A DNA stretch of 64,000 bases, from NCBI RefSeq assembly GCF_024298765.1, contig NZ_CP101210.1. The stretch is one strand, 5' to 3'. Below the pieces are notes generated by a model. That model did no database searches. It was not told the DNA's origin and was given only the letters and a program-made list of their open reading frames with translations. This document shows, in pieces, positions 58,095-64,000 of the stretch. The position numbers and the translations under genes were made by a program. Positions within the stretch are counted from its first letter, which is position 1. Each line of letters starts with the position of its first letter. Source of the stretch: Escherichia coli (lineage in GTDB: Bacteria; Pseudomonadota; Gammaproteobacteria; Enterobacterales; Enterobacteriaceae).

Positions 58095-59489
58095 ATGCCA
58101 TTTAAAACACTCTCCCGACGCACCTTCCTGACGGCAAGCTCGGCGCTTGCCTTCCTCCATACCCCTTTCGCTCGCGCACTTCCCGCCCGACAAAGCGTTA
58201 ACATTAACGACTACAACCCACACGACTGGATCGCCTCATTTAAACAAGCCTTCAGCGAAGGGCGAACGGTCGTCGTGCCTGCCGGATTGGTTTGTGACAA
58301 TATCAACACCGGCATCTTCATTCCTCCCGGCAAAACGTTACACATCCTTGGAAGCCTGCGCGGCAATGGCAGAGGGCGATTTGTCTTACAGGACGGCAGC
58401 CAGGTGACAGGGGAGGAGGGCGGCAGTATGCATAACATCACCCTGGATGTGCGTGGCTCTGACTGCACCATCAAAGGGCTGACGATGAGCGGCTTTGGTC
58501 CGGTAACGCAGATTTATATCGGCGGCAAAAACAAACGAGTAATGCGTAACCTCTCCATCGATAACCTGACCGTTAGCCACGCTAATTACGCCATCTTACG
58601 CCAGGGATTTCATAACCAGATTATCGGTGCCAACATCACCAACTGTAAATTTAGTGATTTACAGGGCGACGCCATTGAATGGAACGTGGCGATTAACGAC
58701 CGTGATATTTTGATATCTGACCATGTCATCGAGCGCATCAACTGTACCAACGGCAAAATCAACTGGGGTATCGGCATAGGCCTTGCGGGAAGTACCTACG
58801 ATAATAACTACCCGGAAGACCAGGCAGTGAAAAACTTTGTCGTGGCGAATATCACGGGATCGGATTGTCGGCAGTTGATCCATGTTGAAAATGGTAAACA
58901 TTTTGTTATTCGTAATATCAAAGCCCGCAATATCACGCCGGATTTCAGTAAGAAAGCAGGTATTGATAACGCGACGGTCGCTATTTACGGTTGTGACAAT
59001 TTCGTGATTGATAATATTGAAATGATTAATAGCGCCGGAATGTTAATCGGCTATGGGGTAATTAAAGGCACATATCTCTCGATACCGCAAAATTTCCGAG
59101 TGAATAATATTCAACTGGATAATACCCACCTTGCTTACAAATTGCGCGGCATCCAAATCTCTGCCGGGAATGCCGTCTCCTTTGTGGCACTGACTAACAT
59201 TGAGATGAAGCGTGCGTCGCTGGAGTTACACAACAAACCGCAACATCTTTTTATGCGAAATATCAAGGTGATGCAGGAATCCTCAGTTGGACCCGCATTG
59301 AGCATGAACTTTGACATGCGCAAAGACGTTCGCGGCGTATTTATGGCGAAAAAAGAAACACTACTGTCTCTTGCAAATGTTCATGCGGTGAATGAAAAAG
59401 GGCAAAGCTCCGTCGATATCGACAGGATTAATCACCATATTGTTAATGTGGAAAAGATTAACTTTAGATTGCCGGAACGGAGGGAGTAG
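58095..59489 (+). CDS. wcaM: colanic acid biosynthesis protein WcaM (secreted, beta-helix-like)
   Basis: 464 aa; Tat-like signal ([14 protein letters not shown]). Confidence 0.85.
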
Positions 59490-59646
59490 ATTTGCGACCA
59501 TTCATAAACTTACTGGATATAATGTTCTAAAAGATTATAATCCTCACACTAACTGTTAAAGCTGGGGCTGGGCAGCATTGACTACTCAGGGAAGGTACTC
59601 ATCTTTATCTTGTGTTTCTTACGTAACAACCAGACTAAAGTGATTT

Positions 59647-60642
59647 ATGAACGATAACGTTTTGCTCATAGGAGCTTCCGGATTCGTAGGAACCCGACTA
59701 CTTGAAACGGCAATTGCTGACTTTAATATCAAGAACCTGGACAAACAGCAGAGCCACTTTTATCCAGAAATCACACAGATTGGCGATGTTCGCGATCAAC
59801 AGGCACTCGACCAGGCATTAGTTGGTTTTGACACTGTTGTACTACTGGCAGCGGAACACCGCGATGACGTCAGCCCTACTTCTCTCTATTATGATGTCAA
59901 CGTTCAGGGTACCCGCAATGTGCTGGCGGCCATGGAAAAAAATGGCGTTAAAAATATCATCTTTACCAGTTCCGTTGCTGTTTATGGTTTGAACAAACAT
60001 AACCCTGACGAAAACCATCCACACGACCCTTTCAACCACTACGGCAAAAGTAAGTGGCAGGCAGAGGAAGTGCTGCGTGAATGGTATAACAAAGCACCAA
60101 CAGAACGTTCATTAACCATCATCCGTCCTACCGTTATCTTCGGTGAACGCAACCGCGGTAACGTCTATAACTTGCTGAAACAGATCGCTGGCGGCAAGTT
60201 TATGATGGTGGGCGCAGGGACTAACTATAAGTCCATGGCTTATGTTGGAAACATTGTTGAGTTTATCAAGTACAAACTGAAGAATGTTGCCGCAGGTTAT
60301 GAGGTTTATAACTACGTTGATAAGCCAGACCTGAACATGAACCAGTTGGTTGCTGAAGTTGAACAAAGTCTGAACAAAAAGATCCCTTCTATGCACTTGC
60401 CTTACCCACTAGGAATGCTGGGTGGATATTGCTTTGATATCCTGAGCAAAATTACGGGCAAAAAATACGCTGTCAGCTCTGTGCGCGTGAAAAAGTTCTG
60501 CGCAACTACACAGTTTGACGCAACGAAAGTGCATTCGTCAGGTTTTGTTGCACCGTATACGCTGTCGCAAGGTCTGGATCGAACTCTGCAGTATGAATTC
60601 GTCCATGCCAAAAAAGACGACATAACGTTTGTTTCTGAGTAA
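59647..60642 (+). CDS. NAD-dependent epimerase/dehydratase-family protein, Gnu/Z3206-like (GlcNAc-P-P-undecaprenol 4-epimerase-like)
   Basis: 331 aa; extended-SDR motifs (LLIGASGFVG, YGKSK); sits between wcaM and galF as I recall for Z3206 in O157-type loci. Confidence 0.65.
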   Translation: MNDNVLLIGASGFVGTRLLETAIADFNIKNLDKQQSHFYPEITQIGDVRDQQALDQALVGFDTVVLLAAEHRDDVSPTSLYYDVNVQGTRNVLAAMEKNGVKNIIFTSSVAVYGLNKHNPDENHPHDPFNHYGKSKWQAEEVLREWYNKAPTERSLTIIRPTVIFGERNRGNVYNLLKQIAGGKFMMVGAGTNYKSMAYVGNIVEFIKYKLKNVAAGYEVYNYVDKPDLNMNQLVAEVEQSLNKKIPSMHLPYPLGMLGGYCFDILSKITGKKYAVSSVRVKKFCATTQFDATKVHSSGFVAPYTLSQGLDRTLQYEFVHAKKDDITFVSE

Positions 60643-60884
60643 TGCAGACGAGTCAGAGAAAAAAGGACTAGGTTGGACTACGATTATTCGGAAAGAGGTA
60701 CTGATTAAATTATCAGTATGTGGATTTCCGAGTAATCCGAGTAACCCAGATGCTGATGGTGTGTAGTGTTATCGTAAGGTTTAAGCAAAGTTATGCGGAA
60801 CTAAGCTTTGGTATATAGCCATAACGTTTGGCTAACCTATGGCAATAATTTACGCACTATCAGCCACTTAGAGGTAGGAAAAGA

Positions 60885-61778
60885 ATGACGAATTTAAAAG
60901 CAGTTATACCGGTAGCAGGTCTTGGGATGCATATGTTGCCTGCCACTAAGGCGATTCCCAAAGAGATGCTACCGATCGTCGACAAGCCAATGATTCAGTA
61001 CATTGTTGACGAGATTGTGGCTGCAGGGATCAAAGAAATCCTCCTGGTAACTCATGCGTCCAAGAACGCGGTCGAAAACCACTTCGACACCTCTTATGAA
61101 TTAGAATCTCTCCTTGAACAGCGCGTGAAGCGTCAGCTGCTGGCGGAAGTGCAGTCCATCTGTCCGCCTGGCGTGACCATTATGAACGTGCGTCAGGGTG
61201 AACCTTTAGGTTTGGGCCACTCCATTTTATGTGCACGACCCGCCATTGGTGACAACCCATTTGTCGTGGTGCTGCCAGACGTTGTGATCGATGACGCCAG
61301 CGCCGACCCGCTGCGCTACAACCTTGCTGCCATGATTGCGCGCTTCAACGAAACGGGCCGCAGCCAGGTGCTGGCAAAACGTATGCCGGGTGACCTCTCT
61401 GAATACTCCGTCATTCAGACCAAAGAACCGCTGGACCGTGAAGGCAAAGTCAGCCGCATTGTTGAATTTATCGAAAAACCGGATCAGCCGCAGACGCTGG
61501 ACTCAGACATCATGGCCGTAGGTCGTTATGTGCTTTCTGCTGATATTTGGCCGGAACTGGAACGTACTCAGCCTGGTGCATGGGGGCGTATTCAGCTTAC
61601 TGATGCTATTGCCGAACTGGCGAAAAAACAGTCCGTTGATGCCATGCTGATGACTGGAGACAGCTACGACTGCGGTAAAAAAATGGGCTATATGCAGGCG
61701 TTTGTGAAGTATGGGCTGCGCAACCTGAAAGAAGGGGCGAAGTTCCGCAAAGGTATTGAGAAGGTGTTAAGTGAATAA
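60885..61778 (+). CDS. galF: UTP-glucose-1-phosphate uridylyltransferase subunit GalF
   Basis: 297 aa; matches recalled GalF ([43 protein letters not shown]...). Confidence 0.95.
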
Positions 61779-62011
61779 AAATTGATCATCCATATATGGT
61801 GGATTGAATAAAAATAGAACTGCAGTGAACATTCAAAAGAAAAGATGATTACGTTATAAGAATGTTCCTGTCTTTTATTGAAAGTATTTAATAACAATAA
61901 GTTACAGCATGTATCGCTCGTACATAGATTTTCCTTGTATTTGACTTCGTTTGATTAGACTATTGGAAAATAGTGAAAAGTATTAAATAATTAGTACCTA
62001 TGATTCATTTT

Positions 62012-62050
62012 CAGTGAGTTGGTAACTGTTAAGCCAAGGGCGGTAGCGTG
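62012..62050 (+). promoter_or_regulatory. JUMPstart element with ops site (O-antigen operon leader)
   Basis: 39-bp cagtgagttggtaactgttaagccaagggcggtagcgtg; ops GGCGGTAGCGTG at 62039-62050. Confidence 0.85.
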
Positions 62051-62085
62051 TGTTTTGATCCTACCCACGTAATATGGACACAGGC

Positions 62086-62841
62086 CTAAGCGAGGTTCTG
62101 GTTTTCAAATTGTTCCGGACTGAGGCCGCCACACCAACTGTGCCGCCGCCACCGATTGTAATCACATTCGATATAATTAAACACCGTTGCCCGCATTATT
62201 TCCCGGCTGATAAAGTGTTCTCCATGGATACATTCCACTTTCAGCGAATGAAAGAAGCTTTCCACGCAGGCATTATCGTAGCAGCAACCTTTTGCGCTCA
62301 TACTTCCACGCAGATTATGCCGCTTCAGTTGCGCCGTCATGCGTGGCGACATTGACCAGCCAATAACGGCACGTGACCACAGGTCAATGACCACTGCCAG
62401 ATACAGCCAGCCTTCATCTGTACGTAAGTACGTGATGTCTCCTGCCCACTTCTGGTTCGGGCCACTGGCGTAAAAATCCTGCTCCAACAGATTTTCTGAC
62501 ACAGGCAGGCCGTGTGCGCGGTAGCTGACCGGGCTGAACTTCCGGGAGGCCTTTGCCCTCAGTCCCTGACGGCGCAGGCTTGCCGCCACGGTTTTTACGT
62601 TAAAGGGGTAACCCTGAGCACGCAGTTCATCCGTCAGGCGTGGGGCACCGTAACGCTGTTTTGACCGGGTAAAAGCCGCGAGGACAACGCTGTCGCAGTG
62701 TTGGCGGAACTGCTGACGCGTGCTTATCCTTGTCCGCCGCTGACACCACGTATACCAGCCGCTGCGGGCCACCCGGAGCACGCGGCACATTGCTTTGATG
62801 CTGAACTCAGCCTGATGTTTTTCAATAAAGACATACTTCAT
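62086..62841 (-). pseudogene. insF: IS3 OrfB transposase with ~37-aa internal deletion
   Basis: 251 aa against ~288 expected; reads ...[20 protein letters not shown]..., missing the block that I recall contains HTDRGGQY. Confidence 0.65.
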
Positions 62842-63137
62842 TTCAGGCGCTTCGCGAAGTATGTCGCGGCCTTTTGGAGGATAGCCAGCTCTTCATCCCG
62901 TTCTGCCAGCTGGCGTTTGAGACGTGCAATCTCGGTAGACATCTCCAGTTCACGTTCAGAAGACGTCTGCTGATTTTGCTGTTTACTGCGCCAGTTGTAG
63001 AGCTGTGATTCATACAGGCTGAGTTCACGGGCTGCGGCAGTAACACCGATGCGTTCAGCAAGCTTCAGGGCTTCACTGCGAAATTCAGGCGAATGCTGTT
63101 TACGGGGTTTTTTACTGGTTGATACTGTTTTTGTCAT
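62838..63137 (-). CDS. insE: IS3 OrfA (HTH protein, 99 aa)
   Basis: [32 protein letters not shown]... matches recalled IS3 OrfA. Confidence 0.85.
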
Positions 63138-63237
63138 GTGAGTCACCTCTGACTGAGAGTTTACTCACTTAGCCGCGTGTCCACTATTGCTGGGTAAGAT
63201 CATTTTTCTCTCAATCCTCATGATAAAGGAGGTTTAT

Positions 63238-64000
63238 ATGGTGATTTTCGTAACAGGCGGTGCAGGATATATTGGATCCCATACCATACTTGAGTTACTT
63301 AATAATGGTCATGATGCCGTTTCGATAGATAATTTTGCCAATTCCTCTATAGAATCATTAAAAAGAGTAGAGCAAATAACTAATAAGAAAATTATTTCTT
63401 ATCAAGGTGATATCCGTGATAAAAATCTACTTGATGAGATTTTTTCAAGACATCATATCGATGCTGTAATTCATTTTGCATCGTTAAAATCTGTAGGTGA
63501 GTCAAAGTTAAAGCCCTTAGAGTATTATTCTAATAATGTTGGTGGAACTTTAGTATTACTTGAATGCATGAAGAGATATAACATTAATAAAATGATATTT
63601 AGCTCTTCTGCTACTGTTTATGGGAATAACAGTATCCCTCCCCATACGGAAGATAGACGAATTGGTGAAACTACAAACCCATATGGGACATCGAAGTTTA
63701 TAATAGAAATGATTTTGAGTGATTATTGTGATAGCGATAATAATAAATCAGTAATTGCACTACGTTATTTTAATCCAATCGGAGCACATAAGTCCGGGAT
63801 GATTGGTGAAAATCCTAACGGGATTCCTAATAATCTGGTTCCTTATATATCTAAAGTTGCACAAAATCAACTTCCTGTATTAAATATTTATGGCAACGAT
63901 TATCCAACTAAAGATGGTACAGGAGTAAGAGACTATATACATGTCTGTGATTTGGCTAAAGGGCATGTTAAAGCATTAGAATATATGTTTTTAAATGATG
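63238..64000 (+). CDS. gne: UDP-sugar 4-epimerase (GalE/Gne family), first gene of an AT-rich O-antigen cluster; 3' end beyond the window
   Basis: Translation MVIFVTGGAGYIGSHTILELL...YGTSK...; GxxGxxG and YxxxK SDR motifs; RBS aaaggagg; visibly AT-rich. Confidence 0.8.
   Translation, partial: MVIFVTGGAGYIGSHTILELLNNGHDAVSIDNFANSSIESLKRVEQITNKKIISYQGDIRDKNLLDEIFSRHHIDAVIHFASLKSVGESKLKPLEYYSNNVGGTLVLLECMKRYNINKMIFSSSATVYGNNSIPPHTEDRRIGETTNPYGTSKFIIEMILSDYCDSDNNKSVIALRYFNPIGAHKSGMIGENPNGIPNNLVPYISKVAQNQLPVLNIYGNDYPTKDGTGVRDYIHVCDLAKGHVKALEYMFLND

Follow-up and report, generated by a model that had tools for sequence, protein, structure and literature searches.

The IS3 copy located between galF and the first O-antigen gene in the window, i.e., the 64,000-nucleotide stretch of Escherichia coli DNA analyzed here, is most probably a non-autonomous relic that derives from a full-length IS3 insertion through the later loss, in place, of 111 bp via a 10-bp direct repeat. 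According to this scenario, a full-length IS3 would have landed between galF and gne/galE, the first gene of an O128-family O-antigen cluster, at a point 5 bp past the JUMPstart/ops leader, with duplication of a TTT target, and this insertion would be common by descent to no fewer than two further E. coli genomes. In the lineage leading to the window, the two copies of GGCGCAACTG would subsequently have misaligned and 111 bp would have been lost in place, either by replication slippage or by RecA-independent short-homology recombination. As 111 bp amount to 37 whole codons, the frame is preserved, and both OrfB and the OrfAB frameshift fusion, which is the transposase, end up devoid of OrfB residues 173-209. 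This stretch carries D195, in VHTDRGGQY, together with, as judged by homology to integrase-fold enzymes, the beta strand that holds it. The remaining element thus keeps both ends, orfA and the frameshift site, and would be unable to catalyze its own transposition.

Anatomy of the Element

The element lies on the minus strand at 62056-63202, with its left inverted repeat (IRL) at the high-coordinate end, beside orfA. Both terminal inverted repeats are intact when compared with other copies (five of them in the case of IRL): on the minus strand, IRL (63164-63202) starts TGATCTTACCCAGC... and IRR (62056-62094) ends ...GTGGGTAGGATCA. These repeats are 39 nt long, imperfect (72% complementary) and bounded by TG...CA ends, and match the repeats of full-length IS3 copies exactly. 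The empty site of strain S1 reads GGCGGTAGCGTGTG-TTTTT-CTCTC, whereas the window shows three T residues before IS3 and five after it; this excess of three indicates a 3-bp TTT target-site duplication, with one copy by IRR (62053-62055) and the other by IRL (63203-63205), their exact placement within the T run being ambiguous. The InsE-like orfA (62838-63137, minus strand) is intact and encodes, from an ATG, 99 aa whose translation equals that of K-12 InsE1 and which match the N-terminal part of the curated IS3 transposase model NF033516. It overlaps by 4 nt with orfB (62086-62841, minus strand), the gene that carries the deletion. The orfA/orfB overlap region also holds an intact predicted programmed -1 frameshift site, C CAA AAG (62871-62877, minus strand), read from the sequence, in agreement with the listing of C_CA(A) as an IS3 shift-site type (PMC5009743).

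Comparison with full-length copies defines what is missing. Full-length IS3 measures 1258 bp in LHM10-1, EC2001 (L002), CP52E and OkiPb01717, as opposed to 1147 bp in the window, and K-12 MG1655 IS3A encodes a 99-aa InsE1 and a 288-aa InsF1, as opposed to the 251-aa OrfB of the window. A previous sequence-only reading of this DNA had given canonical lengths for both the element and OrfB and proposed an alignment to a reference IS3, and this alignment bears it out: the reference OrfB has 288 aa rather than about 251. That reading had also put the in-frame internal loss in orfB at some 37 aa. Relative to EC2001, every aligned base of the window copy is identical and exactly 111 bp (37 codons, in frame) are missing, corresponding to OrfB residues 173-209 and to IS3 positions 878-988 (equivalently, 868-978). 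The K-12 IS3A differs from the window copy at two further positions besides the deletion, and residue 285 of OrfB is Q in the window and K in K-12, a conservative allele difference. The opposite polarity, in which the 111 bp would be an insertion in the so-called full-length IS3, was considered and rejected, given that the segment encodes a conserved catalytic aspartate and half of the rve core and that thousands of copies have it. As a side observation, the K-12 IS3A (L009, 1730-2984) aligns only from position 4 of the 1258-bp element, as the first three bases of its left end (TGA) are absent, and its record annotates 1255 bp.

IS3 belongs to the IS3 group of the IS3 family, with K-12 copies IS3A-E and genes insE/insF. 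The window copy has in common with IS3 the inverted repeats, the 3-bp duplication, the 99-aa OrfA, the C CAA AAG motif and an rve-type OrfB core. The family features TG...CA inverted repeats, 3-bp duplication and orfA/orfB with a predicted frameshift site are thus all present, whereas the DD(35)E triad is incomplete in OrfB. Judged by these features, the element is an IS3 by descent and not a functional autonomous member.

Loss of the Second Catalytic Aspartate

In the full-length OrfB, the catalytic triad consists of D135 (in WAGDITY), D195 (in VHTDRGGQY) and E231 (in CVESFF), with exactly 35 residues between D195 and E231, i.e., DD(35)E. The HTDRGGQY block is among the 37 residues absent from the window copy, as the sequence-only reading had supposed: D135 and the glutamate (E231 in full-length numbering) are kept and D195 is lost. 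Correspondingly, the match to the Pfam rve domain runs from 2 to 100 of the 102 model positions in the full-length OrfB (96.4 bits) and only from 2 to 51 in the 251-aa OrfB (45.5 bits), so that about half of the core is gone. In a phmmer comparison with solved structures, OrfB residues 128-207 align with the deltaretroviral integrase 7ouf (E = 0.007, 80 residues), WAGDITY corresponding to QGDITH and HTDRGGQY to NTDNGPAY, the two catalytic aspartate motifs of retroviral integrases, whose core is of the D,D(35)E kind with an HTDNG-type motif; this likeness is distant and serves only to tell which OrfB residues are catalytic.

Within the IS3 family, the second aspartate is placed on beta strand 4 of the RNase-H-like catalytic core, and substitutions adjoining it in IS2 abolish both DNA binding and transposition (PMC3219604). 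The window OrfB thus very probably lacks a central strand of its catalytic sheet. With D195 deleted from the catalytic triad, along with about half of the rve core, homology across the DDE triad argues that this copy has lost its activity, and it is very probably catalytically dead and unable to transpose with its own protein.

A Repeat-Bounded Junction

The deletion junction (62326-62335) consists of a single kept copy of the 10-bp direct repeat CAGTTGCGCC, which reads GGCGCAACTG on the IS3 coding strand, is GC-rich and is found twice in the full-length IS3, at positions 868-877 and 979-988. A prefix/suffix comparison with LHM10-1 returned a 10-bp overlap at the junction, and the same outcome was obtained when the comparison was repeated at a second locus. 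The breakpoint can accordingly be placed anywhere from 62325/62326 to 62335/62336, which gives eleven equivalent positions, and the junction given previously, 62325/62326, is a valid one among them. IS3 contains only three pairs of 10-bp exact direct repeats, the longest present, and the deletion pair is one of them. When folded as DNA, the 121-nt inter-repeat segment gave -25.5 kcal/mol, an uncontrolled value that is not taken as a sign of a slippage-promoting hairpin.

IS copies with internal deletions are well known, as is slippage between short repeats. Like other internally deleted non-autonomous IS copies, the window element has intact ends, damaged coding capacity and one kept copy of a direct repeat; unlike other slippage-deleted copies, its deletion is in frame. 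The retention of one repeat copy at a repeat-bounded junction points to replication slippage or short-homology recombination, and deletions are known to arise by slippage where GC-rich repeats lie close together (PMC4948707). Slippage, which we infer from the repeat-bounded junction alone, makes the decay of this IS3 a routine event, ordinary for mobile elements.

History of the Insertion

Two complete genomes, LHM10-1 (from a pig, China) and CP52E (from a human, Thailand), have a full-length IS3 inserted at this very base, likewise oriented and flanked by the same TTT duplication, and the site is uninterrupted in 110 complete genomes. The flanks in the window are 99.9% identical to those of the genomes bearing the full-length element (3 mismatches in about 3.2 kb). 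Because a full-length IS3 occupies the same site in two complete genomes, the ancestral state at this site is to be read as a full-length IS3, and the deletion as having arisen in place. The deletion was also found in a separate public contig, GCA_050027535.1, which is 100% identical to the window over 59086-64000.

The window is near-identical to LHM10-1 from about 60.78 kb on and diverges from it by 2-4% upstream. As near-identity is restricted to the downstream part, the galF/O-antigen block seems to have passed from one background to another with IS3 already inside it. The recombination boundary falls at about 59500-60800 of the window.

Recurrence of the Deletion and Sister Deletions

The same deletion exists at other sites. 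A 44-bp junction probe, designed to find no seed in full-length IS3, detected the identical junction at two other sites in 7 of the 5426 complete E. coli genomes; the carriers were three OkiPb chromosomes and a group of four related plasmids, each of about 130 kb. Each of the complete E. coli genomes holds at most one copy of the deleted IS3, as would be expected if the element does not multiply. Of the 479 genomes with IS3 at the OkiPb chromosomal site, three have a 1147-bp element, and the others among the matches listed have 1258 bp. There, the deleted and the full-length forms share identical flanks and the same 10-bp repeat is kept, the OkiPb deletion being a second, independent occurrence in place. 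Additionally, IS3 position 1214 of the deleted copies is C in the window (Q285) and A in L003 and L004 (K285, as in K-12), so that the deletion sits on two allelic backgrounds.

The exact 251-aa OrfB was found at several loci in public assemblies, the contigs numbering at least 15 and coming from different projects. The 44-bp junction had no match in PLSDB plasmids, in GTDB (one genome per species) or in JGI metagenome contigs; to judge by these three collections, the deleted form is rare and does not extend beyond E. coli-type genomes. For the remaining two 10-bp repeat pairs of IS3, the predicted deletions were found as well: a 44-bp deletion (repeats 1001/1045, L002 coordinates) is present in 530 of the 5426 complete E. 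coli genomes, with up to four copies each, and a 117-bp deletion (repeats 100/217, L002 coordinates) in four genomes, on plasmids only. Nothing suggests that in-frame products are favored, because the commonest of the three deletions, that of 44 bp, is out of frame.

Further observations concern individual deleted copies. The copy at 1655-2801 of L014, which is 100% identical to that of the window, lies on a plasmid-like contig, adjacent to traT, and is flanked by a 3-bp duplication of its own, GTC; hence, some deleted copies may have moved by means of transposase supplied in trans instead of arising in place. A full-length IS3 at the exact L014 site was not found in PLSDB. The only full-coverage plasmid match, E. 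albertii p1, was considered as a parent and discarded, since its IS3 lies on the other side of traT and represents a different insertion. A mosaic IS3 occupies 2643-3786 of L011: it differs from the window copy at 53 positions, all within element positions 67-356, which span the IRL-proximal region and orfA, and its orfB encodes the identical 251-aa deleted protein, a pattern that points to recombination between IS3 variants. The deleted copies of L003, L004, L011 and L012 are devoid of a matching 3-bp duplication. At the L004 site, a truncated amylase-like gene adjoins the element, and the flanks are shared by the full-length IS3 copies that occupy this site. These features suggest older IS3-mediated rearrangements at the sites concerned.

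Alternative Origins of the Deleted Copy

Three other accounts of the 1147-bp element can be weighed against deletion in place. It is unlikely that the deletion was born elsewhere and reached this site by gene conversion, i.e., that the full-length IS3 was overwritten from a deleted IS3 in the same genome. IS copies of one genome do recombine, the L011 mosaic joins a divergent orfA part to an identical deleted orfB, and the deleted orfB is present at several loci in public assemblies. Against this reading, all seven complete carriers (7/7) hold a single copy of the junction, no second IS3 copy is present in the 64 kb of the window, and at the OkiPb locus the deletion must have occurred in place, as that locus lacks any donor.

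It is very improbable, moreover, that the element arrived already deleted, mobilized in trans by a full-length IS3 transposase acting on its intact ends. Both inverted repeats of the window copy would allow such an event, and the identical copy next to traT in L014 does carry a target duplication of its own; however, the near-identical flanks and the shared base, orientation and TTT of the full-length IS3 in LHM10-1 and CP52E would then require two insertions at one position, which is far less parsimonious than an insertion followed by a deletion. Besides, the transposase of the related IS911 is about 200-fold more effective when acting in cis than when acting in trans (PMC5009743). Least probable of all is an artefact of sequencing or assembly in which the true locus measures 1258 bp. 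IS elements, being repeats, are often misassembled, and 111 bp could have been dropped in assembling one of them, yet the GCA_050027535.1 contig is 100% identical over the element and 3 kb of flank, seven closed genomes share the junction, as do at least 15 contigs that come from different projects, and the junction itself is that of a clean repeat-bounded deletion in an otherwise unchanged element. Insertion of a full-length IS3 followed by deletion in place thus remains by far the most probable history.

Consequences for Mobility

The sequence-only reading had proposed that the deletion would fix the element at the O-antigen leader. This part of it was not supported. IS3-family transposition follows a copy-out-paste-in pathway that regenerates the donor site (10.1101/2023.06.07.543989), so that a donor IS3 stays put with or without a working transposase. 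In line with this, the intact full-length element persists at the same site in LHM10-1 and CP52E. What the window copy would have lost is the capacity to seed new copies and to take part in transposase-dependent events such as IEE-stimulated excision. As both of its ends are intact, mobilization in trans by the OrfAB of another copy is possible in principle.

A more elaborate role can be envisaged in which the deleted OrfAB, which keeps the DNA-binding and multimerization parts along with the first aspartate and the glutamate, is produced and exerts a trans-dominant inhibition on the remaining IS3 copies of the cell by binding their ends and poisoning transpososomes. We regard this as very doubtful. 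Were it true, the deleted copy would be retained, or recur, for that reason and would not be a neutral relic.

Annotation and Significance

With its frame preserved, the gene passes as intact in annotation pipelines. The deleted OrfB still scores 265.2 bits against NCBI's NF033516, in two stretches and above the cut-off of 160, as compared with 339.2 bits in one stretch for the full-length protein. Likewise, the PGAP label of both L003 2278-3329 and L004 2278-3329 is 'IS3 family transposase, programmed frameshift', and neither is flagged as a pseudogene. Since the 251-aa OrfB and the fused product are labeled as ordinary transposase in this way, annotation-based counts of 'active' IS3 copies are slightly inflated. 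The deletion also provides a clean derived marker that separates the O128-family O-antigen block of this lineage from that of LHM10-1 and CP52E. Its biological weight is small: yet another IS copy has decayed along a mutational route that is well understood.

The O-Antigen Context

The possible effect of the insertion on the O-antigen operon is of greater interest than the deletion and independent of it. The leader of this operon is intact, with a JUMPstart RNA (62012-62050, plus strand; Rfam RF01707, complete model, 52.5 bits, E = 1e-10) that includes the ops element GGCGGTAGCGTG (62039-62050). IS3 begins 5 bp downstream of JUMPstart/ops and is oriented antisense to the operon. Upstream of it lies galF (60885-61778, plus strand), and the first O-antigen gene, a galE/gne-type epimerase gene on the plus strand, starts at 63239, about 35 bp beyond IS3. 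The corresponding galF/O-antigen block of LHM10-1 encodes O128-family Wzx and Wzy. A simple scan of the window IS3 returned no terminator-like site. The insertion may affect RfaH-dependent O-antigen expression, and any such effect would come from the insertion and not from the deletion. A search of the literature for IS3 insertions between galF and the O-antigen genes found nothing specific; the ShigaPass paper was considered as a precedent and set aside, as its mentions of IS3 concern other genes.

A further gene of the region lies between wcaM and galF: an NAD-dependent epimerase gene (59647-60642, plus strand) that encodes 331 aa and whose counterpart in LHM10-1 is annotated as GlcNAc-diphospho-undecaprenol 4-epimerase. 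Two epimerase genes thus flank galF, this one and the galE/gne-type gene beyond IS3.
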